Shown: positions 1 through 50,445 of the stretch, piece by piece
Position numbering within the stretch: position 1 is the first letter of the stretch
Layout: the number at the start of each line of letters is the position of its first letter
NCBI GenBank assembly: GCA_045596985.1
Contig: JAZODM010000044.1
Coordinates: forward strand, 6,222 to 70,221
Direction: 5' to 3'
From: Clostridia bacterium
Lineage (GTDB): Bacteria > Bacillota > Clostridia > UMGS1883
Length of the DNA stretch: 64,000 nt
Translations under genes and position numbers: made by a program
Notes under the pieces: model-generated
What the model was told of the DNA's origin: nothing
Seen by the model: only the letters and a program-made list of their open reading frames with translations
Databases searched by the model: none

Positions 1-2411
1 TGATGGAGAAGGAAAGAGGTATCACCATTTTTTCCAAGCAGGCGGTAATGGAGACGGGCGGCACGAAGGTGACCCTTCTTGACACACCGGGGCACGTGGA
101 TTTTTCCGCCGAAACGGAGCGCGCGCTGTGGGTTATGGATTATGCAATCCTTGTCATAAGCGGTCTTGACGGTGTGCAGAGCCATACGCAGACCTTGTGG
201 AAGCTTCTTGCCCGTCATGGTATTCCGGTGTTCATTTTCGTCAACAAGATGGATATATCAAATTTTACTAAGGACGAGTTAATGCAGGAGCTTGGTGAAA
301 AGCTCTCGCCCGGATGCGTCGATTTTGAATGTGAAAATATGCTTGAAGAAGTTGCCCTGTGTGATGAAAAGCTGACGGAGCAATTTCTGGAAACGGAGAA
401 TATAGGAGAAGATGATATTTCCACCGCAATTTACGAAAGAAAGGTATTCCCGTGCTTTTTCGGATCAGCACTGAAGCTTGACGGCGTTGAAAACCTTCTT
501 GATGCGCTGCGAAAGTATATGGTAACATATGAAAATTCCCCATCCTTTGGGGCGAAGGTCTTTAAAATATCGGAGGATGAAAAAGGTGCAAGGCTGACCC
601 ATATGAAGATAACGGGCGGCTCTCTTTGCGTGCGCGATAAAATAAGCTATGACGATGCGGAGGAAAAGGTCAGCGAAATACGCATATATTCGGGTGCGAA
701 GTATAAGAGCGTGCCCGAGGCGCATATAGGTGACGTGTGCGTGGTATGCGGCCTTACAAAAACGTATGCAGGAATGGGACTTGGAAATGAGAACGATTCT
801 CCTGCGCCCGTGCTTGAAAGCGTTTTTACCTACAAGGTGACAGTTACGGACGGAACCGATACGCGCGTTGCCCTCGCAAAGCTAAAAAAGCTTGAGGAGG
901 AGGAAAACCGCCTTCACGTTATTTATAACAGTGTGCTGGGCGAAATCCACATTCAGCTTATGGGCGAGGTGCAGCTTGAAATAATGCAGCGCGTTTTGAG
1001 GGAACGCTTTTCTCTTTCGGTTGAGTTTGAGCAGAGCAGTATCCTATATAAAGAAACGGTGGAAGGAATTGTTGAGGGTGTCGGACATTACGAGCCGCTC
1101 CGCCATTATGCGGAGGTACACCTATTGTTAGAGCCGCTTAAACGTGGCAGCGGTATTGTTATTGAGTCTGACTGCAGCGAGGATGAGCTTTCACGAAACT
1201 GGCAGAGATTGGTTTTAACGCATATAAAGGAAAAAAATCACATAGGTGTGCTTACAGGTTCGCCCATTACTGATATGAAAATCACACTGAAGGCAGGTAA
1301 AGCGTATGTAAAGCATACTGTCGGCGGAGATTTTCGTCAGGCAACGTACCGTGCAATACGTCACGGACTGCGGTGCGCGCAAAGCGTTCTTTTAGAGCCT
1401 TATTATTCATTTACAATAGATGTTCCGCCCGAAAATGTCGGCAGGGCTATGACAGACCTTGAAAAAATGTATGCGCGCATTGATGTGCCGCAGATATTTG
1501 AGGGCAGCGCCCGTATAACGGGGGTAGCGCCCGTAATAGCGCTTGAGGGGTATCAGAAAATACTGACGGGATATACACGTGGAATTGGGAAAATGTCCTT
1601 TGCCCTGTGCGGATATGATACCTGTCACAATACAGATGAAGTGATTGAGAAAATTGCATACAATGCAGATGCCGACCTTGAAAACAGTGCTGATTCAGTT
1701 TTTTGTAAGCAGGGGGCAGGTTTTGTTGTGCCGTGGAACGAGGTGCACGAATATATGCATCTTGAAAGCGTTCTTGCACCGAAAAAGGAAGAGGAGATAA
1801 AAGCTCCCCCTATGCGCAAAAAAGCAATCGTCTATGACGAGGACGAACTTATCGAGATATTTGAGCGTACGTATGGAAAAATTGTCCATAAAAATCACAA
1901 TGCGATGAAAACACCCAAGGATGTTGTGAGGGAGAAAAAAGTGCGTTCCGCACCGCAAAAGCAAGGCCCGGGGTATATACTGATTGACGGATATAATATA
2001 ATTTTTGCATGGGACGAGTTGAAAGAGATTGCAAGGGACAGCCTCGAGGATGCACGCAATATGCTCATTGACAAGCTATGCTCCTACAAGGCATTAAGAC
2101 CGCAGCAGGTAATACTTGTTTTTGACGCATATAAGGTTAAGGGAAACCGCGGCGAGGTTGAAAAGGTGCATAACATTACCATTGTATATACCAAAGAGGC
2201 GCAGACCGCCGACGCGTATATAGAAAAGGCGGCGCACGAGCTTGGGAAGAAATATCAGGTGCAGGTTGCAACGAGTGATGCGCTGGAGCAGATGATAATA
2301 TTGGGCAGCGGAGCGCGCCGTATAAGTGCCGCCTCATTTATTAAGGAAATGAAGGATGTCGAGCAGGAAATAAGCGGTTTGCTCAAAGAAATTTCAAGCG
2401 AAAATATTTAA
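1..2411 (+). CDS. TetM/TetO/EF-G-like translational GTPase (5' partial) fused to a C-terminal YacP/Rae1-type NYN ribonuclease domain
   Basis: The ORF is open to the window edge. From memory, residues 1-~590 align colinearly with TetM/EF-G: the TPGHxDF switch region, the NKxD motif (VNKMDI), and domains II-V. A charged linker follows. The last ~150 aa (YILIDGYNIIFAWDEL...VFDAYKVKG...TADAYIEK...VATSD) match the YacP/Rae1 NYN fold with conserved acidic residues. Confidence 0.75.
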   Translation, partial: MEKERGITIFSKQAVMETGGTKVTLLDTPGHVDFSAETERALWVMDYAILVISGLDGVQSHTQTLWKLLARHGIPVFIFVNKMDISNFTKDELMQELGEKLSPGCVDFECENMLEEVALCDEKLTEQFLETENIGEDDISTAIYERKVFPCFFGSALKLDGVENLLDALRKYMVTYENSPSFGAKVFKISEDEKGARLTHMKITGGSLCVRDKISYDDAEEKVSEIRIYSGAKYKSVPEAHIGDVCVVCGLTKTYAGMGLGNENDSPAPVLESVFTYKVTVTDGTDTRVALAKLKKLEEEENRLHVIYNSVLGEIHIQLMGEVQLEIMQRVLRERFSLSVEFEQSSILYKETVEGIVEGVGHYEPLRHYAEVHLLLEPLKRGSGIVIESDCSEDELSRNWQRLVLTHIKEKNHIGVLTGSPITDMKITLKAGKAYVKHTVGGDFRQATYRAIRHGLRCAQSVLLEPYYSFTIDVPPENVGRAMTDLEKMYARIDVPQIFEGSARITGVAPVIALEGYQKILTGYTRGIGKMSFALCGYDTCHNTDEVIEKIAYNADADLENSADSVFCKQGAGFVVPWNEVHEYMHLESVLAPKKEEEIKAPPMRKKAIVYDEDELIEIFERTYGKIVHKNHNAMKTPKDVVREKKVRSAPQKQGPGYILIDGYNIIFAWDELKEIARDSLEDARNMLIDKLCSYKALRPQQVILVFDAYKVKGNRGEVEKVHNITIVYTKEAQTADAYIEKAAHELGKKYQVQVATSDALEQMIILGSGARRISAASFIKEMKDVEQEISGLLKEISSENI

Positions 2412-2572
2412 TATATGAAAATCGATGCTAAATTATTCATTTTTTAGCGTTAAAAACTTGACTAAATAAAGAAAAAGCGTTATACTGTAGTGTGGTGAGT
2501 AAGGGGGAAGAGCTGTTTCTCCCTGCTCTATCGTGCATATAATTTTTTTTAACATACAAGGAGGTAAACATT

Positions 2573-5500
2573 ATGGCAAGACAGAAAAAAACCATGGATG
2601 GTAACACCGCTGCCGCATATGTCTCATATGCGTTTACAGACGTTGCTGCCATCTACCCCATTACGCCTTCCTCTAATATGGCTGAGGTTACAGACGAATG
2701 GGCTGCAAAAGGAAAGAAGAACATATTCGGAAGAACGGTAAAGATTGCTGAAATGCAGTCTGAGGGCGGTGCTGCAGGTGCAGTTCACGGTTCTCTTACA
2801 GCAGGTGCTCTTACCACTACTTATACTGCTTCTCAGGGTCTTCTTCTTATGATTCCCAATATGTATAAGATTGCAGGTGAGCTTCTTCCGTCAGTTATTA
2901 ACGTATCTGCACGTGCTCTTGCTTCACATGCACTTTCAATTTTCGGTGACCATCAGGACGTATATGCGTGCCGTCAGACAGGCTATGCAATGCTCTGCTC
3001 TGTAAATGCGCAGGAGGCTATGGACCTTGGTGCAGTTGCACATCTTACAACTCTTAAGTCAAGAGTTCCGTTCCTTCATTTCTTTGATGGCTTCAGAACA
3101 TCTCACGAATATCAGAAGGTAGAGTGCTGGGATGACGAGCAGCTCAAGAAGCTTATCGATATGAACGATGTTGAAAGCTTCCGCCGTCGTTCTCTTAATC
3201 CTGAGCATCCCGCTCAGCGCGGTACTGCACAGAACCCCGACGTTTTCTTCCAGGCAAAGGAAGCAAACAACAAGTTCTATGATGCAGTTCCCGAAATCTG
3301 CCAGAACTATATGGACAAGGTTAATGCAGAAATCGGTACAGATTACAAGCTGTTTAACTACTACGGTGCAGCAGATGCTGAGCACGTAATCGTTGCTATG
3401 GGTAGTGCCTGCGACACTATGGAAGAAACAGTTGATTACCTTACAAAGAAGGGTGCTAAGGTTGGTCTTATCAAGGTTAGACTTTACAGACCTTTCAGTG
3501 CTAAGCACCTTATCGAGGCTATTCCTGCTACTGTTAAGAAGATTAGCGTTCTTGACAGAACAAAGGAATGCGGCAGCATCGGTGAGCCTCTTTACCTTGA
3601 TGTTGTTGCAGCTCTTCGTGACAGCCAGTTCAAGGATATCGAAATCTTCGGCGGACGTTACGGTCTTGGTTCAAAGGATACAACTCCTGCTCAGATTATC
3701 GCTGTATTTGGTAACAACGATAAGAAGAGATTTACTATCGGTATCAACGATGATGTGACATTTACATCTCTTGATATTACAGAAAATCCCGACACAACTC
3801 CCGAGGGTATTACAAGCTGTAAGTTCTGGGGTCTTGGTGCTGACGGTACTGTTGGTGCTAACAAGAACTCAGTTAAGATTATCGGTGACCACACTGATAT
3901 GAACGTTCAGGCATACTTTGACTATGACTCAAAGAAGTCAGGCGGTCTTACAGTATCTCACCTTCGTTTCGGTAATGCGAAGATTACAAGCACATACCTT
4001 ATCAACAAGGCTGACTTTGTTGCTTGCCACAAGGCTTCTTATATCAGAAAGTACGATATGGTTAGCGACGTTAAGCCCGGCGGTGTATTCCTTCTTAACT
4101 GCCCCTGGACAAAGGCAGAGGAGTTCGAGGCACATATCCCCGGCCAGGTTAAGCGTTACATTGCTGAAAACAACATTCAGTTCTATGTAATCGACGGTGT
4201 TGCTATCGGTAAGGAAATCGGTCTTGGTAACAGAATTAACACAGTTCTTCAGTCTGCATTCTTCAAGCTTGCAAATATCATTCCTGCTGACGATGCAATC
4301 AAATATATGAAGGACGCTGCTACAGCTTCTTACTCAAAGAAGGGTGAAGCTATCGTTAAGATGAACCACGACGCTATCGATATGGGTGCACAGAAGGTAG
4401 TTAAGGTTGACGTTCCCGCTTCCTGGAAGGATGCAAAGGACGAGGATCTTTCTGTTAAGTTTGACGGCGAAGGAAAGCTTATTGACTACATCAATAACAT
4501 CCTTACACCTATCAACTCTTTTGCAGGTATGAAGCTTCCCGTTTCTGCGTTTGTTCCTTATGCTGATGGTGAAGTTCCGCTTGGATCTTCTGCATTTGAG
4601 AAGCGTGGTATCGCTATCGACGTTCCCGAATGGAAGAGTGAAAACTGTATCCAGTGTAACTTCTGTTCTTATGTATGTCCTCACGCTTGTATCCGTCCTG
4701 TAGTTCTTACAGAAGAGGAAGCAAATAACGCTCCCGAGGGTATCAAGTATATCAATATGACAGGTCTTAACGGTCTTTACTTTGCAATGGCTGTATCTGT
4801 ACTTGACTGTACAGGTTGCGGCTCTTGTGCAAATGTATGTCCCGGTAAGAAGGGCGAGAAGGCTCTCGTTATGCAGCCTCTCGAAACTCAGGAAGCGAGC
4901 CAGGCAGTATTTGATTACGCAATCAAAGTTCCTGCAAAGAAGGAAGTATTTGAGAAGTTTAAGGAAACAACAGTTAAGGGCAGCCAGTTCAAGCAGCCCC
5001 TCCTCGAGTTCTCAGGCGCTTGCGCAGGCTGCGGTGAAACACCTTATGCTAAGCTCGTAACTCAGCTTTACGGCGATAAGATGTACATTGCAAACGCTAC
5101 AGGTTGTTCTTCAATCTGGGGTGGTAGCTGCCCGTCAACTCCTTACACAGTTAACGAAAAGGGCGAAGGTCCTGCATGGGCTAACTCTCTCTTCGAGGAT
5201 AACGCTGAGTACGGTTACGGTATGTACCTTGCACAGAACACTCTCCGTGAAGACCTCGTTAAGAAGGTTGAGGGTGTTAAGGAAACTGCTGATGATGCTG
5301 CTAAGGCTATCATTGACAAGTTCCTTACAACAAAGGAAGATGTAAATGCTAACAAGGTTGCTGCAGAAGAGCTTGTAGAAGTTCTTTCTAAGATGAACAC
5401 ACCTGAGGCAGCAGAAATTCTTAAGGATAAGGAATACCTTTCCAAGAAGTCTGTATGGATCTTAGGTGGTGACGGCTGGGCATACGATATCGGCTACGGC

Positions 5501-6094
5501 GGTCTTGACCACGTTCTTGCAAGCGGTGACGATGTAAACATCCTTGTATTTGATACAGAGGTTTACTCAAACACAGGCGGTCAGTCTTCAAAGGCTACAC
5601 CTACAGGTGCTATTGCGAAGTTCGCAGCAGCAGGTAAGGAAGTTAAGAAGAAAGACCTTGCAGCTATCGCTATGAGCTACGGTTATGTATACGTTGCACA
5701 GGTTGCTCAGGGTGCTGACAACAACCAGTGTATAAAAGCATTTGTTGAGGCTGGTTCTTACAATGGACCTTCTATCGTTATAGCATATGCTCCGTGTATC
5801 AACCACGGTATTAAGGGTGGTATGAGCATTGCTCAGACAGAAGAGAAGCGTGCCGTTCAGGCAGGTTACTGGCATCTGTTCCGTTTCGACCCCAGAAGAA
5901 CAGAAGAAGGTCTTAATCCCTTCGTTCTTGACTCTAAGGAGCCCAGCGAAAGCTATGAGGACTTCCTTATGAACGAGGTTCGTTACAACTCACTTGCCCG
6001 CAGCAATCCTGAAAGAGCAAAAGAGCTCTTCGCAAAGGCAGCTGCTAATGCAAAGGCTAAGTACGCAGAACTTGTTGCGCGTGCAAGCAAGTAA
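2573..6094 (+). CDS. nifJ: pyruvate:ferredoxin (flavodoxin) oxidoreductase, single-chain PFOR
   Basis: A 1173-aa protein with a typical PFOR N-terminus (AYPITPSS), a TPP-binding region (GGDGW), and two ferredoxin-type Cys clusters (CIQCNFCSYVCPH and CTGCGSCANVCP). It has an RBS (aggagg) and an upstream TTGACT-17-TATACT promoter. Confidence 0.95.
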   Translation: MARQKKTMDGNTAAAYVSYAFTDVAAIYPITPSSNMAEVTDEWAAKGKKNIFGRTVKIAEMQSEGGAAGAVHGSLTAGALTTTYTASQGLLLMIPNMYKIAGELLPSVINVSARALASHALSIFGDHQDVYACRQTGYAMLCSVNAQEAMDLGAVAHLTTLKSRVPFLHFFDGFRTSHEYQKVECWDDEQLKKLIDMNDVESFRRRSLNPEHPAQRGTAQNPDVFFQAKEANNKFYDAVPEICQNYMDKVNAEIGTDYKLFNYYGAADAEHVIVAMGSACDTMEETVDYLTKKGAKVGLIKVRLYRPFSAKHLIEAIPATVKKISVLDRTKECGSIGEPLYLDVVAALRDSQFKDIEIFGGRYGLGSKDTTPAQIIAVFGNNDKKRFTIGINDDVTFTSLDITENPDTTPEGITSCKFWGLGADGTVGANKNSVKIIGDHTDMNVQAYFDYDSKKSGGLTVSHLRFGNAKITSTYLINKADFVACHKASYIRKYDMVSDVKPGGVFLLNCPWTKAEEFEAHIPGQVKRYIAENNIQFYVIDGVAIGKEIGLGNRINTVLQSAFFKLANIIPADDAIKYMKDAATASYSKKGEAIVKMNHDAIDMGAQKVVKVDVPASWKDAKDEDLSVKFDGEGKLIDYINNILTPINSFAGMKLPVSAFVPYADGEVPLGSSAFEKRGIAIDVPEWKSENCIQCNFCSYVCPHACIRPVVLTEEEANNAPEGIKYINMTGLNGLYFAMAVSVLDCTGCGSCANVCPGKKGEKALVMQPLETQEASQAVFDYAIKVPAKKEVFEKFKETTVKGSQFKQPLLEFSGACAGCGETPYAKLVTQLYGDKMYIANATGCSSIWGGSCPSTPYTVNEKGEGPAWANSLFEDNAEYGYGMYLAQNTLREDLVKKVEGVKETADDAAKAIIDKFLTTKEDVNANKVAAEELVEVLSKMNTPEAAEILKDKEYLSKKSVWILGGDGWAYDIGYGGLDHVLASGDDVNILVFDTEVYSNTGGQSSKATPTGAIAKFAAAGKEVKKKDLAAIAMSYGYVYVAQVAQGADNNQCIKAFVEAGSYNGPSIVIAYAPCINHGIKGGMSIAQTEEKRAVQAGYWHLFRFDPRRTEEGLNPFVLDSKEPSESYEDFLMNEVRYNSLARSNPERAKELFAKAAANAKAKYAELVARASK

Positions 6095-6126
6095 TTAAAA
6101 ACTAAGTTGGATATGCCAATATAAAG

Positions 6127-6162
6127 CAAAAACATCGCAGGAAAATTCCTGCGATGTTTTTG
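6127..6162. terminator. bidirectional rho-independent terminator (stem CATCGCAGG...CCTGCGATG)
   Basis: Perfect hairpin aaaaacatcgcagga/tcctgcgatgttttt with an A-run on one side and a T-run on the other. It sits between convergent PFOR (+) and the SLOG gene (-). Confidence 0.8.
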
Positions 6163-6163
6163 C

Positions 6164-6598
6164 TTATACAGTTATTCTTAAAATAGTTTTCTTTTTTCTT
6201 CGTGCATAATCCAGCGTTGTTGCAGCACCGCCAAAGCTATGTGTTACATATGCAATAACAAAATCTGATTGCTCTACCATATATTCATTTCTTTTTGATA
6301 TAGCAAATTTAGGAGGAGTTTTCTCGATGGGTGGGTATATGGTGTAATCACATATGTCGGTATTATATTTTTTGTTAAGATATGGAATTACAAGTATCGA
6401 AGTTATATGTGGATATATTTCTTTTAGTTTTTTTACTGTTTCTGCACAAAGACGGTCAAAGCTTCCGTAGCCGCCCAATAAAAATTTATCAGCACCGTTT
6501 TTGATTAAATTTTCAATCTCATAGTATAGTTTTTCTGCAAGAAAAGAATGTTCAGATACGGAAAGACTGCCGTGTCCGCAAAATGTTACTGTACTCAT
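6164..6598 (-). CDS. DUF1273/YpsA-like SLOG-family protein
   Basis: A 144-aa protein. The motif pattern (FCGHGSL...FLLGGYGSFD...YPHITSILVIPY) resembles B. subtilis YpsA/DUF1273. The coding DNA is clearly AT-richer than its neighbours. Confidence 0.55.
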   Translation of the reverse strand: MSTVTFCGHGSLSVSEHSFLAEKLYYEIENLIKNGADKFLLGGYGSFDRLCAETVKKLKEIYPHITSILVIPYLNKKYNTDICDYTIYPPIEKTPPKFAISKRNEYMVEQSDFVIAYVTHSFGGAATTLDYARRKKKTILRITV

Positions 6599-6992
6599 AA
6601 TAATCCCTCAACCTAAAAAAGGTAGCGGGGCTAAATTAAAAAATGCGCAGCCCCACCCGAAAGCAGAGCTACGCACTAAAAAACGCAGGGACTCTGTTTC
6701 GAAGTTGCTACGCTTTTTTATCACACAAATAATTTCACAATCAAGAGTATGACGAAACAAGAGTGTACGCTTTTTACGATAGCGTACCTCCTGAAAGTGA
6801 AATTATTAATTTGTGTTTTACATAGTGTAAAAAAACGTAGCACTGTTATTATATCATTCAATCTTGGAAAATACAACATAAAATTTAAAAAGATATAATT
6901 TTGCAGAAAACGCAGATAATTCTTTATAAAATACAAAAGTGATATATTTGTTGATTTTCTAAACATTTGGTGCTATAATTAATTATATAAAA

Positions 6993-7628
6993 GTGAAAGT
7001 GGGTTTTACTATGGCACTTGAAAATAAGTTAGGTATTACTGATTCGGCTGAGCTTGCCCGTATAGAGGAAAAAATCAGTAAAAGAAAGGCTATAGAATTA
7101 TTTGAAAATGGATTTTTGAACACCTTGGAAGAAGGGAAGTTTTCTGCCCTTGCGGCTATTCATAAGTATCTTTTTGATGAGATTTATGATTTTGCAGGGA
7201 AGCTTAGAACAGTAAATATTTCAAAGGGGAATTTTAGATTTGCGCCTTTGATGTATCTGGAAGCGGCACTTGAAAGTATTGATAAAATGCCGCAGACCAC
7301 ATTTGATGAAATCATTGATAAATATGTTGAAATGAATATTGCCCATCCCTTCAGGGAAGGAAATGGGCGCAGTACACGCATATGGCTTGACTTAATTCTT
7401 AAAACACAGCTTCATAAGGTGGTGGATTGGAGCCGTGTTGAAAAAGAGGATTATCTGCTTGCAATGGAGCGCAGCCCTATTCGAAGCATCGAAATAAAGC
7501 ATATATTAAAGGCTGCTTTGACAGACGAAATTGATAATCGGGAAGTGTATATAAAGGGTGTAGACCATAGCTATTATTATGAAGGGTATACAGCCTTTAA
7601 AGCAGAAGATTTGGATATAAAACCATAA
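6993..7628 (+). CDS. fic: Fic family protein (class III, NmFic-like AMP-transferase with C-terminal inhibitory helix)
   Basis: Canonical Fic motif HPFREGNGRSTR and a C-terminal SYYYEG that matches the [S/T]xxxE[G/N] auto-inhibition motif. It is near-colinear with Neisseria NmFic as recalled from memory. An extended -10 (tgcTATAAT) sits at 6971-6979. The true start may be ATG 7011 rather than GTG 6993. Confidence 0.85.
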   Translation: MKVGFTMALENKLGITDSAELARIEEKISKRKAIELFENGFLNTLEEGKFSALAAIHKYLFDEIYDFAGKLRTVNISKGNFRFAPLMYLEAALESIDKMPQTTFDEIIDKYVEMNIAHPFREGNGRSTRIWLDLILKTQLHKVVDWSRVEKEDYLLAMERSPIRSIEIKHILKAALTDEIDNREVYIKGVDHSYYYEGYTAFKAEDLDIKP

Positions 7629-7644
7629 ATTGAATGTGAATAGC

Positions 7645-7686
7645 AAAAACCATCGCAGGAATTTTCCTGCGATGGTTTCATTTTGT
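7645..7686 (+). terminator. rho-independent terminator (stem CATCGCAGG...CCTGCGATG, second copy)
   Basis: Hairpin aaaaaccatcgcagga/tcctgcgatggttt followed by a T-run. The stem is near-identical to the hairpin at 6127-6162. Confidence 0.8.
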
Positions 7687-7727
7687 CTCGATTTGGGGAC
7701 AGTCCCAAAATTGAGACGTTTTTGTGC
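7687..7727 (+). terminator. second hairpin plus T-run carrying a TTGGGGAC-A-GTCCCAA core
   Basis: Imperfect ~14-bp stem (tctcgatttggggac / gtcccaaaattgagac) followed by gtttttg. Confidence 0.5.
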
Positions 7728-7765
7728 AGACATATCTTGCAATATGTCTGGTTATGTGTTACAAT
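7727..7765 (+). promoter_or_regulatory. sigma-70-type promoter TTGCAA-17-TACAAT with a 9-6-9 operator-like palindrome centred on the -35
   Basis: CAGACATAT-cttgca-ATATGTCTG is a perfect inverted repeat at 7727-7750. The -35 TTGCAA lies at 7737-7742 and the -10 TACAAT at 7760-7765. The RBS aaggagg lies at 7778-7784 and the ATG at 7795. Confidence 0.55.
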
Positions 7766-7794: not shown

Positions 7795-9339
7795 ATGAAA
7801 AAAATTCTTACAATAATGCTGACTGCTATAGCGATACTTGTTATTATGCTTTCCTTTACAGTATCGGCATCTCAGCAGGTACAGGTAACGACTGCAAGCT
7901 TTCCCGTTGTTATAAACGGAAACATCGTAAACAATAGGATGCGTGAATATCCCTTTATTCTCTATAAGGATATTACATATTTTCCTATGACATATGAAGA
8001 CTGCGCATTTTTGGGTGTGGAAAATAACTGGACCGCACAAAGCGGCAACATCTTGACAAAAGCTACGCCCTCAGGTGTTTATTGCGACTACATCAGTACA
8101 CAGCTTAGTCTTGTAAAGCACGGGAAAGTTGCAACCATTGTGTCAACTCCCATAACGGTTCTTGGTGAAACCATAGATAATAATGCGCAGGAGTTTCCCA
8201 TCCTTAACTACAACAATGTTCTGTATTTTCCGCTGACATGGGACTGGTCACAGAAATTCGGATGGAGTACAATTTTTCACACAAACCGCACTTTAGAGGT
8301 TACCACAGAGGGATTTGATAATGCAGGATATTGTTTCCTCTACAGTATTGATAAATCAAAGGAACCTAAAAAACTTGACATACAGAATACTGATCTGCGG
8401 TATATGATGGATACTTACATAGAGGAATACAGCTATTCGCCTAATTATTCAGGTAACCCGTCCGCCACTGCAGACGGCTACAAATTTTTATATAAACTGG
8501 TTATGGCAGACGGAACGACCACTAATCATATTACTGTAAACGACAAGCTTTACCAGAAATTCAAGCAGGACGGATGGTTTGAAATAGGAGAAGAGGAACA
8601 GGCTGTTGCAGAGTTTGCCAAAACACATTCTATGCGGGATACTGCAAGAGCAATTACTCCGCTTCCTTACATAAAGATAGCGGACAGCGATCTCGAGTCA
8701 ATTCTGTATAATATAGCAACAAAATACACGACTCTTATATCAGCCGATCACAGAATATGTGCCGTAAAGGAAAGTGATGCTCAGGCATATAAGAGTGTGG
8801 GCTGGATGGGCGAGGAGGAGTACCTTGATTATTACGTAAACCTCTGCCTTGCAAGTGGTGATACGGGAAGTGCAATGACTTTCCTTGAAAAAACATTAGG
8901 AGAAGAAATCGCAGAAAACTTCGAAATAAGTGCCAAAATACCGTGGGATTATGACTATAGCCGTGTAGAACAAAAATATTATGACATTACTAAAAGCGTG
9001 CTTAATAAAATGAGTAAGGCGGTACAAGTGCGTGATGTATATGATTCAGCAAGAGTTGAAAGAGGAAAATTTATTGTCCTGAACTGTGCAGTTCCGGCAA
9101 GAAAGACCGTTAAAAGCGTGGAAGTATCCTTCGATGTGGTTGATGCCGGTGGCAAGGTAATCGCTTCGAGAACTGTTACGGAGAACATATACGCACAAAA
9201 TTACACAGACGGCAAACTTTTCGTCGCAGAGGGAATTTGCTATGCCTTCCAGTCTCCTGCGGAGAATGGAATCAAAAATGTTAAAGTCAAGAAAATTAAT
9301 ATTGTAGATACTGACTTCCGTCCTGGCGGTCAGGGTTAA
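7795..9339 (+). CDS. secreted hypothetical protein (signal peptide, two N-terminal repeats)
   Basis: Signal peptide MKKILTIMLTAIAILVIMLSF after a strong RBS. Repeats FP(V/I)xNxN...YFP(M/L)T(Y/W) occur twice. The ORF-track start at 7630 is rejected because two terminators lie inside that extension. Confidence 0.6.
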   Translation: MKKILTIMLTAIAILVIMLSFTVSASQQVQVTTASFPVVINGNIVNNRMREYPFILYKDITYFPMTYEDCAFLGVENNWTAQSGNILTKATPSGVYCDYISTQLSLVKHGKVATIVSTPITVLGETIDNNAQEFPILNYNNVLYFPLTWDWSQKFGWSTIFHTNRTLEVTTEGFDNAGYCFLYSIDKSKEPKKLDIQNTDLRYMMDTYIEEYSYSPNYSGNPSATADGYKFLYKLVMADGTTTNHITVNDKLYQKFKQDGWFEIGEEEQAVAEFAKTHSMRDTARAITPLPYIKIADSDLESILYNIATKYTTLISADHRICAVKESDAQAYKSVGWMGEEEYLDYYVNLCLASGDTGSAMTFLEKTLGEEIAENFEISAKIPWDYDYSRVEQKYYDITKSVLNKMSKAVQVRDVYDSARVERGKFIVLNCAVPARKTVKSVEVSFDVVDAGGKVIASRTVTENIYAQNYTDGKLFVAEGICYAFQSPAENGIKNVKVKKINIVDTDFRPGGQG

Positions 9340-48723: not shown

Positions 48724-50445
48724 ATGCTTTTTACTATAGATAAAAATAAGAGCCTTTCGCTTTTGCAGGCAGTAATGGCACTTTTCATAGTGCTTGCACC
48801 AGCGGCGTTGGCATTGTTGCCTGCACATTCGGATGTTTATGCTTTGTTCATTGTTTTTGCACTGGTTTTTCTGATGCGCATAAAGAAAACGCAAAGGGTG
48901 TATTTTTCCCCGATGCATTTTGTTATGCTGATGCTTCTTTGTTATACACTGATAGCTTCAATATGGGCAAAAAACAAAGAAGGACATCTTCTGTATATGT
49001 TTATAATCCTGGCGGCGATTTTTTTCCTGAGCAGTGCTTTTGATTATTTTAAAGAGAGTAACTGCGAAAATCTGCGCCGCAGGATGATGTATTTATTCCT
49101 TTCATCGGGAACGCTGTGCGCATTGATGAATATTGTCTACTGGCTTTTATACATAATTCCCGTAGCAGGGAGGGATGCGTTTTCCTATGGCGTCGGCAGC
49201 AATGATTTTCTGGCGGTGTATATGCTCCTTTGCATAATGTGCGCAATTTCCCTTATAAAGTCAAATGCACCGTTGCGCAGAAAGATATTGATACCTATGC
49301 TTTTAATAATGCTTTTCGTATTTGTTATGGCGAAAAGTCTTATCGGCTGGGTTTTGGCGCTTTTAATATGTGTAATAGCTGCTTCTTCAAAGCAGTCGGA
49401 AAAAATGTTTCTGCCCCTTTCTTTAATATCAACTGTAGTTCTGGCAGGAATAGCTATAGCCGTTTCAACGCTGATGCCCTGGGGCGAGCTTTCAGGGGAT
49501 TTGTTTGCGCTTGGCTATAGCCGCCCGTTTGGAAGCGGCGGCGGTGTGATTAGTGCGCAGGCACTTTACGGTGCAAGGGTGTATTCTAAAGACACTGCTG
49601 CAGGAATTATGGCGATGCTCTTTGCGCAGTCGGGCATCGTGGGACTTATATGCTGCGTGGCAGTAATTTTGCGCGCATTGACGCACTTTTTAAAGCTGAA
49701 AAACCGTGAAAGTCTGATTTGCCTTTTTGTACTTGTCTTGATAATGATTTTACCGCTTGGCAAAAGTTATGCAATGCTTTTTTTATGGATAGGTCTTTTT
49801 GCCTATAATGAGCAAGCGCTTTCAATGTGTGTGGGGAAAACCGTTAAAAATAAATTTCTGCAAAAAACAGTGTACACACTGGCTACGGTTTCGGTTATCG
49901 CTGCGGTGCTTTTCCTGCAGTGCTTTATGCGCGCATATGCCCATTTAAACTATAAAAACGGGAACTATATGTCAGCATATAGTTTTTACAGAGCATCTGC
50001 CGCGATAAATATTACAGACAGTGAAAGCTGCCGTCTTGCCGCAACGTGCCTTCGTAAGGGCACAGATATAAAGGCGCAGCGTGATGAGGCAATTGCACTT
50101 ATTGACAAAGCTATAAAAAGGGATGAAAGTAATCTTGAAAACACTGTTGAAAAGGCGCGCATTTACAATGCGTGTGAGGAATATGACCTGTGCGCACAGC
50201 AATACAGAGTGGCATCCCAGAGGGCAGTTGCAAGTGAAGAGTACAATCTTTCACTTGTAAAAACCCTGTATAAGATAGTGCAGAAAAATCCCAAGGGAAG
50301 CAGCGAGACGAAACGCGCGTATGAGGAAATTCTTGCCATTGCACAAGAGACGCAAAATCTTGATTACAGAAAAGAGATAAATGATATTGCCGATAAGGCG
50401 CTGATTTATACAAAAGGAGAGCTTGGCAGTGAAGAAAATAGTTAA
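48724..50445 (+). CDS. O-antigen ligase (Wzy_C)-like polytopic membrane protein with C-terminal helical-repeat domain
   Basis: ~12 TM segments with a large loop, and a ~170-aa soluble C-terminal tail. Confidence 0.5.
   Translation: MLFTIDKNKSLSLLQAVMALFIVLAPAALALLPAHSDVYALFIVFALVFLMRIKKTQRVYFSPMHFVMLMLLCYTLIASIWAKNKEGHLLYMFIILAAIFFLSSAFDYFKESNCENLRRRMMYLFLSSGTLCALMNIVYWLLYIIPVAGRDAFSYGVGSNDFLAVYMLLCIMCAISLIKSNAPLRRKILIPMLLIMLFVFVMAKSLIGWVLALLICVIAASSKQSEKMFLPLSLISTVVLAGIAIAVSTLMPWGELSGDLFALGYSRPFGSGGGVISAQALYGARVYSKDTAAGIMAMLFAQSGIVGLICCVAVILRALTHFLKLKNRESLICLFVLVLIMILPLGKSYAMLFLWIGLFAYNEQALSMCVGKTVKNKFLQKTVYTLATVSVIAAVLFLQCFMRAYAHLNYKNGNYMSAYSFYRASAAINITDSESCRLAATCLRKGTDIKAQRDEAIALIDKAIKRDESNLENTVEKARIYNACEEYDLCAQQYRVASQRAVASEEYNLSLVKTLYKIVQKNPKGSSETKRAYEEILAIAQETQNLDYRKEINDIADKALIYTKGELGSEENS

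Follow-up and report, generated by a model that had tools for sequence, protein, structure and literature searches.

Between the pyruvate:ferredoxin oxidoreductase gene (PFOR) and a secreted-protein gene, the 64,000-nucleotide stretch of DNA analysed here (the window) carries an islet of two divergent genes, one for a SLOG/YpsA-like protein on the minus strand and one for a class III Fic protein on the plus strand. We put the probability at about two in three (0.65) that this locus is an accessory slot at the PFOR end occupied by independent Fic and SLOG cassettes, with the SLOG gene placed behind a leader RNA that would act as a relay-type attenuator.

Features of the islet
6124-6165, no strand assigned: left hairpin, its 20-bp stem (AAGCAAAAACATCGCAGGAA / TTCCTGCGATGTTTTTGCTT) fully paired and flanked by an A-run and, on the opposite side, a T-run
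6161-6925, no strand assigned: SLOG cassette (gene, leader and promoter), 765 bp, an independent insertion/deletion unit
6164-6598, minus strand: SLOG/YpsA-like gene, 144 aa, its stop codon abutting the left hairpin
6951-6979, plus strand: Fic promoter-like site (TTGATT, 17 nt, TG-TATAAT; 10/12 matches)
7011-7628, plus strand: class III Fic gene (NmFic/EfFIC-type), 205 aa, identified by sequence and profile matches
7647-7678, plus strand: right hairpin, the second PFOR-terminator copy, a 15-bp perfect stem and then GTTTCATTTTG; predicted Fic terminator

The first-pass annotation, made from the letters alone, had described the islet genes as AT-richer than their neighbours, and base composition agrees. 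The SLOG gene has the lowest GC of the 53 ORFs in the window (0.333, with GC3 0.222 and z -3.5) and the Fic gene the third lowest (0.376, z -2.0), compared with 0.458 for PFOR and 0.406 for the downstream secreted-protein gene. The spacer between the two genes had been called very AT-rich and 390 bp long. It is AT-rich (GC about 0.27-0.39), but it measures 412 bp (6599-7010) and is not featureless, since it contains two divergent promoter-like sites and encodes a structured leader RNA of about 205 nt. Look-ups of the exact proteins (window SLOG, window Fic and P0001) returned no matches.

Alleles at the 3' end of PFOR

Related contigs were found with the slot empty, with Fic only, with SLOG and Fic, and with SLOG plus other DNA. 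In L085, PFOR is followed by one homologous hairpin and then by genes for the secreted protein, RsmF, PPase, Maf and MreC, with neither SLOG nor Fic; this is the PFOR-to-secreted-protein junction, with one hairpin and no islet, for which the first-pass annotation had suggested a search. A 92%-identical relative, L082, likewise has a single hairpin and lacks both genes. L002 is the occupied counterpart of the empty L082 (94-98% identity): a 1469-bp SLOG+Fic segment lies between its two hairpins, both of which map to the single hairpin of L082. The proposal that the islet sits in or at a pre-existing terminator, with duplication of the hairpin, is supported by the empty site in L085 and by the L082/L002 pair.

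Two contigs from independent samples (L092 and L093) have the order PFOR-hairpin-Fic-hairpin without SLOG. They align to window positions 4607-6100 and 6926-7616 with 23-28 nt between the two blocks, and the 763-bp SLOG cassette of L002 is replaced in them by 23 bp. In L001, SLOG is present and the window sequence is kept up to 6902, after which it diverges into a gene labelled integrase-like from 30 N-terminal residues. Three other contigs (L087-L089) carry a 92%-identical Fic gene upstream of rsmF, without SLOG and without PFOR. The DNA to the right of the second hairpin also varies by strain: it may hold the secreted-protein gene, a RelB-like remnant or something else. The nearest relatives are represented by short metagenomic contigs, beyond which the right-hand ends of several alleles fall. 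These alignments indicate a strain-variable slot for accessory genes at the 3' end of PFOR, with the second hairpin copy at the outer limit of the insert. As a natural example, the allelic series shows cleanly how a terminator hairpin can delimit insertions and deletions.

The bracketing hairpins

The two hairpins share the 24-nt core CATCGCAGGAAAATTCCTGCGATG, found at 6133-6156 and as its exact reverse complement at 7651-7674. The core is palindromic except for its loop, and alignment of the pair therefore gives a direct repeat of 33 nt (88%) or else an inverted repeat of 42 nt (86%). We considered loop orientation (AAAATT versus AATTTT) as a criterion for direct or inverted duplication and rejected it, because the left loop flips easily: that of the window is flipped relative to those of L002, L082 and L092. 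Both copies are predicted to fold stably, the left one at -31.0 kcal/mol on one strand and -31.8 on the other, the right one at -24.8 kcal/mol.

The left hairpin has T runs on both strands and is predicted to be an intrinsic terminator of the usual kind, a G+C-rich stem-loop followed by a U-tract. A single homologous hairpin follows PFOR in L085, L082, L092, L001 and L002. By sequence and position, the left hairpin is the native terminator of PFOR (plus strand) that also serves the convergent SLOG gene (minus strand), and is in this sense bidirectional. Variant second copies are found 3' of Fic in L002 and in L092/L093.

Terminator hairpins are common and the core is short. We considered whether the two hairpins might be unrelated look-alikes, arisen by chance or convergence, or members of a genome-wide REP-like repeat family. 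We give this explanation almost no credence. The copies match at 24 of 24 positions including the loop and have flanks in common, only these two matches occur in the 64-kb window at up to three mismatches (shuffled sequences give an expectation of 0), and in L002 and L092 the second copy is clearly a variant of this sequence. A metagenome scan located the core on a single contig, at the corresponding PFOR position. The statement that near-identical hairpins flank exactly two divergent genes is accurate, and the possibility that the hairpin belongs to a common repeat is made improbable by the two copies in the window and the one contig in the scan. A search of Rfam at permissive thresholds gave only chance microRNA/sRNA matches for the hairpin.

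A different possibility is that the hairpins are attL/attR-type sites and that the islet is one or more decayed, integrase-less CIME-like elements targeting the PFOR terminator, with the cassettes as cargo. Repeats of 24-33 nt do flank the insert, empty sites have a single copy, the L001 allele has an integrase-like gene in the slot, and cargo to the right of the second hairpin differs from strain to strain. Against this, the islet in the window holds no recombinase, and the L001 gene is known from its 30 N-terminal residues only. Moreover, the SLOG cassette has no hairpin copy at its own boundaries, the right-hand hairpin copies vary in loop and upper stem between strains, and ordinary recombination between two copies, by deletion or insertion, gives the same pattern. 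We regard site-specific integration as unlikely. The hairpin with its flanks has no GTTRRRY core of an integron attC site and no intI lies in the neighbourhood; that the islet cassettes carry their own promoters also counts against integron gene cassettes.

The accessory slot resembles prophage 'morons' and CIME-type islets in consisting of small, low-GC, strain-variable units of promoter, gene and terminator, with repeats flanking the insert. On the phage contig L083, the same leader RNA and a lipoprotein gene lie between lysis genes and an ORF named integrase-like from its N-terminal sequence. Unlike such elements, the window islet adjoins no phage or recombinase genes, and its mobility is deduced solely from presence and absence among contigs.

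SLOG and Fic as separate cassettes

It had also been proposed that SLOG and Fic were acquired as a unit and act together. Stated fully, this would make them one horizontally acquired cooperating module, for example a nucleotide-signal sensor with an AMPylating effector, inserted whole into the PFOR terminator. The genes are adjacent and divergent in both the window and L002, both have low GC, and Fic matches a PADLOC candidate defence family. Relative to L082, moreover, the 1469-bp two-gene segment is a single indel between hairpin copies, and that pair of contigs, taken alone, would also fit a two-gene unit. However, the Fic-only alleles at the same site on two independent contigs (L092 and L093) largely refute the module, and the L001 SLOG allele runs on into other DNA. 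Comparing the occurrence of the two genes in other genomes, a check that had itself been suggested, we found Fic within 6 kb of a SLOG homologue in only 2 of the 80 species representatives that carry one. In L087-L091 there is a Fic gene but no SLOG, PADLOC gave no match for SLOG, each gene has a promoter-like site of its own, and what recurs next to genes of this SLOG family is not Fic but a divergent XRE-type HTH gene or, failing that, the leader RNA. A cooperating module is thus very improbable. On this comparative evidence, SLOG and Fic are independent, self-contained cassettes and not a functional pair. Adjacency and common low GC do not make a functional pair, and as an islet this one is ordinary.

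The Fic cassette

The Fic gene product matched E. faecalis FIC (PDB 5nv5) with 288 bits and NmFic with 222-225 bits, and passed the cut-off of the NCBIfam NmFic equivalog NF046029 (305.9 bits against 230). It also matched the PADLOC candidate defence family PDC-S04 (338.9 bits). Class III Fic proteins have been defined previously (PMC3667792, PMC6408439), and the biochemistry of EfFIC as a class III enzyme has been described (PMC6408439). Like NmFic of Neisseria meningitidis and EfFIC of Enterococcus faecalis (PDB 5NV5), the protein consists of one FIC domain of some 200 aa and has no separate antitoxin gene; the window ORF list has no antitoxin-type small ORF adjoining it. Its active-site motif (HxFx(D/E)GNGRxxR, here H112-PFREGNGRSTR-123, an instance of HPFxEGNGRxxR) aligns with that of EfFIC, and its C-terminal inhibitory helix (SxxxEG) carries the motif (S/T)xxxE(G/N) as S187-YYY-E191-G192, aligned with SYYYEG of EfFIC and NmFic. 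By homology with these proteins, it is expected to be an auto-inhibited AMPylator/deAMPylator (PMC6408439; PMC3667792). A class I FicT/FicA toxin-antitoxin assignment was rejected, the inhibitory motif being in cis and VbhT-type models scoring 65-67 bits, far under cut-off. Unlike NmFic and EfFIC, the window gene is strain-variable, is bracketed by two copies of its neighbour's terminator and matches PDC-S04. The Fic promoter and 5' UTR have homologues in the Fic cassettes of L087 (84.7% identity over window 6951-7613) and L092.

The SLOG protein

The first-pass identifications of a class III Fic and a DUF1273/SLOG protein were both correct, as judged by sequence, profile and fold matches. The SLOG protein matched Pfam PF06908 (DUF1273) with 35.2 bits against a cut-off of 27.7, over residues 18-79 only. 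Its AF2 model had a pLDDT of 94.4 and gave B. subtilis YpsA (2nx2) as the top PDB fold match (TM 0.81, E 2e-7), followed by ShosA, DprA, LOG and the SLOG domain of ThsA; at the sequence level there was no match in the PDB, nor was there one in PADLOC. The GGYGxFD and RN motifs are invariant among 36 SLOG homologues, and the protein is predicted to bind a nucleotide derivative.

The protein is like B. subtilis YpsA and SPbeta YoqJ, of the YpsA clade of the SLOG superfamily, in its fold, its PF06908 match and its glycine-rich GGYGxFD loop. In contrast to YpsA, it has 144 rather than about 180 aa, shares about 15% identity in the structural alignment, and belongs to a family that stands behind a leader RNA or, in other species, a divergent XRE regulator. 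The score against the NCBIfam equivalog PRK13660 was 17.9 bits with a cut-off of 165, and gpsB is not among the annotated neighbour ORFs (PFOR, Fic, secreted protein and RsmF). By these sequence comparisons, the window SLOG protein is a relative of YpsA and not its orthologue. Over-production of YpsA inhibits FtsZ assembly and blocks cell division in B. subtilis (PMC6459960), which would be a reason for tight gating of SLOG expression.

A structured leader RNA upstream of the SLOG gene

The leader and its surroundings have the following features, the promoter, 5' end and termination being predictions from sequence.

Features of the leader, all on the minus strand
6848-6876: promoter-like site for the leader/SLOG transcript, read from sequence (-35 TTGTAT at 6876-6871, 17-nt spacer, extended -10 TGaTATAAT at 6856-6848)
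6842-6637: leader RNA, about 205 nt from the predicted transcription start
from 6841: 5' strand of helix P1
6787-6781: 5' arm of the apical hairpin, S1 (GUACGCU)
6775-6753: segment a (AAAAAGCGUACACUCUUGUUUCG)
6719-6707: 3' strand of P1
6701-6678: segment b (CGAAACAGAGUCCCUGCGUUUUUU)
6676-6662: 5' arm of the terminator, T5'
6657-6643: 3' arm of the terminator, T3'
6643-6638: U-tract
6605-6609: SLOG Shine-Dalgarno (SD) sequence GAGGG, downstream of the leader terminator

Some 7 nt separate the promoter-like site from the start of P1, and in related loci a TATAAT-like box is found 5-8 nt before P1. The leader region folded with a z-score of -6.6 and contains a terminator-like site at 6677-6642. 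Its 5' domain, with the long P1, is predicted at -46 to -57 kcal/mol, and the closing helix reaches up to about 38 bp. The terminator ends about 30 nt before the SLOG SD sequence, and no promoter-like site was seen between the two, where there is no recognisable room for one. In related loci the start codon comes about 15-25 nt after the leader. In about 20 SLOG loci and in the phage loci L083, L084, L098, L100 and L101, the SD sequence and start codon follow on the same strand about 10-25 nt past the U-tract. The leader is thus a conserved structured RNA predicted to end in a terminator directly upstream of a ribosome-binding site, an arrangement expected of an attenuator.

Conservation and covariation

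Some 20 species share the leader ahead of a SLOG gene; its nucleotide identity is 74-81%, compared with 52-68% identity for the adjoining SLOG proteins. The leader was also found in 14 of the viral contigs retrieved, ahead of genes for secreted proteins, membrane proteins and sigma factors, and 14 of the 16 pattern matches in viral contigs had the same architecture. We built a CM from compact members only (nine viral-contig sequences together with L019, L029 and L051), so that its training set held no leader of the window's SLOG-type group. This CM matched the window leader over its full length (49.4 bits, E 1.6e-6) and recovered 19 SLOG-type leaders at full length, in addition to the training members L019, L029 and L051. 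A weak CM match at window 49651-49799 lies inside a 573-aa ORF and was taken as chance. Blastn with the RNA as query returned a single unannotated phage record and nothing from plasmids.

Cognate duplexes were predicted to be more stable than non-cognate ones for P1 (-16.1 versus -9.1 kcal/mol), for a:b (-18.6 versus -13.0) and for S1:a (-13.8 versus -7.5). In the two structures, 93.1% and 92.8% of cells were paired, compared with 13-61% in slid controls; each structure had seven double-change pairs, and covariation scores were above those of all 500 shuffles. A hairpin of b with T5' was predicted in 27 of 29 members. Covariation of this hairpin is weak, with -10.0 kcal/mol for cognate and -7.8 for non-cognate duplexes, 33% of non-cognate pairs being as good, and double changes in two of seven pairs. 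This comparative evidence shows that the RNA is conserved and that the P1, S1:a, a:b and terminator helices covary.

The window leader had no match at E<=1 among the 4227 families of Rfam 15, and the L083 and L029 versions gave nothing near a gathering score at E<=10. A full-text search of the literature found nothing joining DUF1273 with a riboswitch. The family appears to be undescribed: a well-supported structured RNA with four covarying helices, no Rfam 15 match and about 35 members among the sequences retrieved. It forms a link between SLOG genes on chromosomes and cargo genes of phages.

Proposed attenuation and its alternatives

The only recognisable SLOG promoter lies upstream of the leader RNA, and we infer from sequence that the leader acts in cis as a relay-type transcription attenuator. 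Its five segments would pair in a chain, namely S1:a (the apical hairpin), a:b, b:T5' and T5':T3' (the terminator), with b:T5' serving as an antiterminator hairpin that has the U-run as its loop. While the 5' hairpin domain (P1 with S1:a) holds, b would be free to pair with T5', and polymerase would read through into SLOG. When a is released, it would pair with b and the terminator would form; together with the U-run behind it, the a:b stem itself resembles a terminator. Two features count against this relay: the covariation of b:T5' is weak, and if P1 stays intact, a:b could form only as a pseudoknot whose linker is very short.

We also considered the possibility that the structured RNA is a stand-alone small RNA gene, for example a trans-acting sRNA borne by phages or other mobile elements, with downstream genes expressed by incidental read-through or from other promoters. 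The RNA is predicted to begin at a promoter and to end at a strong terminator, and the thermodynamic optimum retains both P1 and the terminator. Some phage contigs without an ORF directly 3' of the RNA would also fit: in L104 a second terminator follows with no ORF between, and in the L095 group the next ORF lies about 120 nt on. On the other hand, about 20 SLOG loci and several phage loci have an SD sequence and start codon so soon after the RNA that no promoter would fit in between, and conservation of a chain of mutually exclusive helices ending in a terminator has the look of an expression platform. A free-standing sRNA is therefore improbable, and we favour the relay attenuator.

Several other mechanisms were rejected. 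An antiterminator formed by the 5' strand of the RNA with T5' fits L083 and L100 but not L006, L028, L046 or L098. Sequestration of the SD sequence by the CCCU of segment b was dropped because it does not hold for L011 or L015. By eye, there was no T-box sequence and no conserved UGGN bulge to suggest a T-box. A type III toxin-antitoxin system was set aside, the RNA having no tandem repeats and the downstream genes being mutually unrelated.

The putative relay attenuator is like trp and pyr leaders, T-box leaders and riboswitch platforms in being a promoter-proximal leader with mutually exclusive helices and a terminator just before the ribosome-binding site, and its predicted antiterminator, as in classical attenuators, uses the 5' arm of the terminator. 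Unlike those systems, it has no leader peptide, and T-box, PyrR, RAT and ANTAR signatures were not seen by eye. It also differs in its unusually long closing helix, in its four-step relay (S1:a, a:b, b:T5', T5':T3') and in its presence on phage contigs ahead of unrelated cargo genes.

More tentatively, and at slightly less than even odds, the leader may represent a new family of relay-type riboregulators, of which it would be the first to be described. Members would be either ligand riboswitches or targets of a phage or host antitermination factor, and would gate 'moron' genes in uncultured gut Clostridia and their phages; in other lineages, the divergent XRE repressor would do the same job for SLOG genes. 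If so, the genes under such control would include those for SLOG proteins, lipoproteins, secreted nucleases and an ECF sigma factor. A regulated attenuator would offer a way into studying how YpsA-type SLOG proteins are restrained, and the leader may also reveal how prophage cargo genes are controlled in gut Clostridia. As a separate observation, which we treat as a lead only, ACUCUUGUUUC resembles boxA and is accompanied by a boxB-like A-rich loop, as in a nut-like site.

A hairpin pair brackets two divergent low-GC genes

The islet 3' of the pyruvate:ferredoxin oxidoreductase (PFOR) gene has the following features (window coordinates).

6133-6156: left hairpin core, CATCGCAGGAAAATTCCTGCGATG (24 nt)
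6164-6598, minus strand: SLOG gene, 144 aa; Pfam YpsA/SLOG PF06908, 35.2 bits
7011-7628, plus strand: Fic gene, 205 aa; Fic domain
7651-7674: right hairpin core, exact reverse complement of CATCGCAGGAAAATTCCTGCGATG

The first-pass annotation had described two matching hairpins around two divergent low-GC genes, and this description was confirmed. Among 53 window ORFs, SLOG ranks lowest (GC 0.333, GC3 0.222, z -3.5) and Fic third lowest (GC 0.376, z -2.0). With up to three mismatches allowed, the hairpin core has two sites in the 64-kb window, and shuffles predict none. Because the core is palindromic except for its loop, both a direct-repeat reading (33 nt, 88%) and an inverted-repeat reading (42 nt, 86%) fit the pair. 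The left hairpin has a 20-bp perfect stem with an A-run on one side and a T-run on the other. Its folding energies are -31.0 and -31.8 kcal/mol for the two strands, and that of the right hairpin is -24.8 kcal/mol. The left loop is AAAATT in the window versus AATTTT in the related contigs L002, L082 and L092; owing to this small inversion of the loop, each window copy is the exact reverse complement of the other. Two palindromes lie between the right hairpin and the secreted-protein gene, at 7685-7717 and 7727-7750 (GTCTCGATTTGGGGAC/GTCCCAAAATTGAGAC, with 16-bp arms, and CAGACATATCTTGCAATATGTCTG); both could be operator-like sites.

The islet occupies the PFOR terminator

The annotation had also proposed insertion at a duplicated terminator, which predicts an empty site: a PFOR-to-secreted-protein junction with one hairpin and without the islet. 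This site was found in the related contig L085, which encodes the PFOR C-terminus, a single hairpin GAAAAATCGCAGGACAATTTGTCCTGCGATTTTTT, the secreted protein (44% identical to that of the window), RsmF (73%), pyrophosphatase, Maf and MreC, in that order. L082, which has 91.6% nucleotide identity to window 611-6100, likewise runs from PFOR into a single hairpin, with a RelB-type antitoxin gene on the opposite strand beyond it. The GTDB species representative L002 (96.7% identity to the window) has the order PFOR-hairpin-SLOG-leader-Fic-second hairpin, then DNA matching that 3' of the L082 hairpin. L082 5510-5542 aligns with both L002 hairpins, and the intervening 1469 bp are absent from L082. 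These comparisons mark the hairpin as the native terminator of PFOR, at which the islet sits with the hairpin duplicated. The single hairpins in L085 and L082 and the flanking pair in L002 thus support insertion at the terminator, though the L082 state could equally be a deletion between two hairpin copies.

In another species (L031 275-3476; PFOR 56% and SLOG 53% identical), a leader and SLOG cassette also lies directly 3' of PFOR, co-directional with it and behind a different terminator hairpin. The slot behaves like moron or islet hotspots, and the islet as such is ordinary. An integron attC reading failed because GTTRRRY cores are absent and the cassettes have their own promoters.

SLOG and Fic are separate cassettes

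Two contigs from different samples (L092 and L093; PFOR identity 95-97%) have the order PFOR-hairpin-(23-28 nt)-Fic-second hairpin. SLOG is absent between these hairpins, both contigs lacking the 763-bp cassette that carries it in L002. L001 (95% identical) carries PFOR-hairpin-SLOG-leader, then unrelated DNA from window 6902. A gene in this DNA begins MNQTITRDLIEKFENYLINEEKASATLEKY and looks, from its sequence, like an integrase; the contig stops within it. About 250 nt precede this gene (L001 1-545, allelic to the window from 6903 on) and contain a long inverted repeat, TAGCCGAAAAGGAGTAGTCC ... GGATTACTCCTTTTCGGCT; Rfam has no match in the region. The duplicated hairpins may be att sites of an integrative element; the window contains no recombinase, and the sole candidate seen is the integrase-like N-terminus of L001.

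Scanning genomes with a SLOG profile yielded 80 species representatives. Only two have Fic within 6 kb of the SLOG homologue: L002, and a representative whose Fic is 37% identical. In L087-L089, Fic is 92% identical, its promoter and 5' UTR are homologous and its terminator differs; it stands directly 5' of rsmF-ppa-maf-mreC, with neither SLOG nor PFOR nearby. Given the Fic-only alleles, the SLOG allele that runs into other DNA and the rare co-occurrence, SLOG and Fic are independent cassettes that share the slot by chance. The suggestion that they were acquired as a unit and may act together is therefore not supported by L092 and L093, by the other DNA in L001 or by the 2/80 count.

Identities of the encoded proteins

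The Fic protein scored 288 bits against E. faecalis FIC (5nv5) and 222-225 bits against NmFic, and exceeded the NCBI NmFic equivalog cut-off (305.9 versus 230). It carries the motif H112-PFREGNGRSTR and a C-terminal inhibitory S187-YYY-E-G, and along its full length it matches PDC-S04, a candidate defence family in PADLOC. Within the NmFic/EfFIC class it is an ordinary member. EfFIC, which belongs to class III of the FIC enzymes, carries out AMPylation with Mg2+ and deAMPylation with Ca2+ (PMC6408439). Databases hold thousands of Fic homologues at 80-92% identity. Between lineages the protein is 92% identical (window 7011-7628; L087 6001-6609), while the flanking RsmF, Maf and MreC are 66-72% identical; this reflects either unusually strong constraint or else frequent transfer.

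The AlphaFold model of the SLOG protein is confident (pLDDT 94.4). Among solved structures, B. subtilis YpsA comes closest to it (2nx2, TM 0.81), followed by ShosA, DprA and LOG proteins. The protein is a relative of YpsA/YoqJ, but short, and YpsA orthology was rejected (NCBIfam equivalog 17.9 versus a cut-off of 165). It had no match in a phmmer search of PDB sequences or in PADLOC. In B. subtilis, FtsZ assembly is blocked when YpsA is over-produced (PMC6459960). Downstream of the islet, the secreted protein (7795-9339) has no Pfam or NCBIfam match and is fast-evolving: identity is 58% to the best homologue other than itself and 44% to the syntenic orthologue in L085.

A structured leader RNA precedes SLOG

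The part of the locus worth following up is the leader RNA between the SLOG promoter and gene.

6876-6871, minus strand: predicted -35 element
6856-6848, minus strand: predicted extended -10 element, TGaTATAAT
6677-6642, minus strand: terminator-like hairpin, followed by a U-run, ~30 nt before the SLOG SD

The sequence folds far more stably than shuffles (z -6.6). Rfam had nothing at this region, and no described family was found in Rfam, nucleotide databases or the literature. Upstream of SLOG genes the leader is 74-81% identical, and the SLOG proteins there are 52-68% identical. In IMG/VR, pattern scans turned up 14 viral-contig versions that are compact, at 135-190 nt. The genes downstream of these vary: lipoprotein, membrane-protein and small-ORF genes, a secreted nuclease gene beyond a second terminator (L104) and an ECF sigma factor gene ~120 nt away (L095 group). 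In L029 the leader precedes a MazE/AbrB-like ORF. A covariance model trained on the compact set only (nine viral-contig members plus L019, L029 and L051) recovered, at full length, these last three and 19 other leaders, including that of the window (6842-6637, 49.4 bits, E 1.6e-6); it had no match in the remaining ~58 SLOG loci.

In all members, the 5' part forms one long irregular hairpin (P1). The bases that directly follow the promoter close it, in pairs that covary (GCUAC/GUAGC, CCAC/GUGG, GCGAC/GUCGC, GCAAC/GUUGC). At its tip, segments S1 and a form a hairpin with a conserved GGUAAAAA loop junction and a conserved unpaired ...UUUCGUCAUAC on the 3' side. Segment a (A-run, 3' arm and unpaired stretch) also has 15-22 bp of complementarity to segment b, located 3' of P1 and ending in the U-run. 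Segment b can also pair with the terminator 5' arm (T5'), with the U-run as loop. We compared cognate with non-cognate duplexes in 29 members, independently of any alignment. Cognate duplexes were favored for P1 (-16.1 versus -9.1 kcal/mol), a:b (-18.6 versus -13.0) and S1:a (-13.8 versus -7.5), and by a weak margin for b:T5' (-10.0 versus -7.8). In a 12-sequence alignment (A3), P1 with b:T5' had 93.1% of cells paired and a:b with the terminator 92.8%, each with seven pairs changed on both sides. Covariation scores of both structures exceeded all 500 shuffles, and slid controls were 13-61% paired.

We read the leader, from these pairing patterns, as a relay attenuator. Formation of P1 and S1:a would leave b free to form b:T5', and polymerase would read through; formation of a:b would instead free T5', and the terminator would form. 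In this model the leader would work like terminator/antiterminator attenuators. One difficulty is that a:b pairing while the long P1 is still in place would require a pseudoknot whose linker is 3-8 nt. A role as a stand-alone sRNA is possible because a few phage contigs have no ORF directly 3' of the leader. The window, L001 and L002 alone have an extra hairpin, GGGGCUGCGCAUUUUUUAAUUUAGCCCC, then GCUACCUUUUUU (window 6654-6615, minus strand), which overlaps the terminator 3' arm and may offer one more alternative structure or, between leader and SD, a second terminator.

Regulatory neighbors of SLOG homologues

By crude ORF calls, with the SLOG match at about 6001 of each locus, a divergent HTH gene of the XRE type (Pfam HTH_3) lies 50-250 bp upstream in 23 of 61 SLOG loci without the leader and in none of 20 leader-bearing loci.

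SLOG loci with the XRE neighbor: L024, L035, L037-L039, L044, L048, L050, L052-L054, L056, L058, L059, L062, L065, L067, L070, L072, L073, L075, L080, L081

The SLOG gene family seems to be controlled by either a protein repressor or the leader RNA. In one subclade (L003, L004, L005, L008, L009, L045), a response-regulator gene lies 360-1030 bp upstream of SLOG; the receiver domain is the only Pfam match in its N-terminal 150 residues, and by eye the protein looks Spo0A-like.
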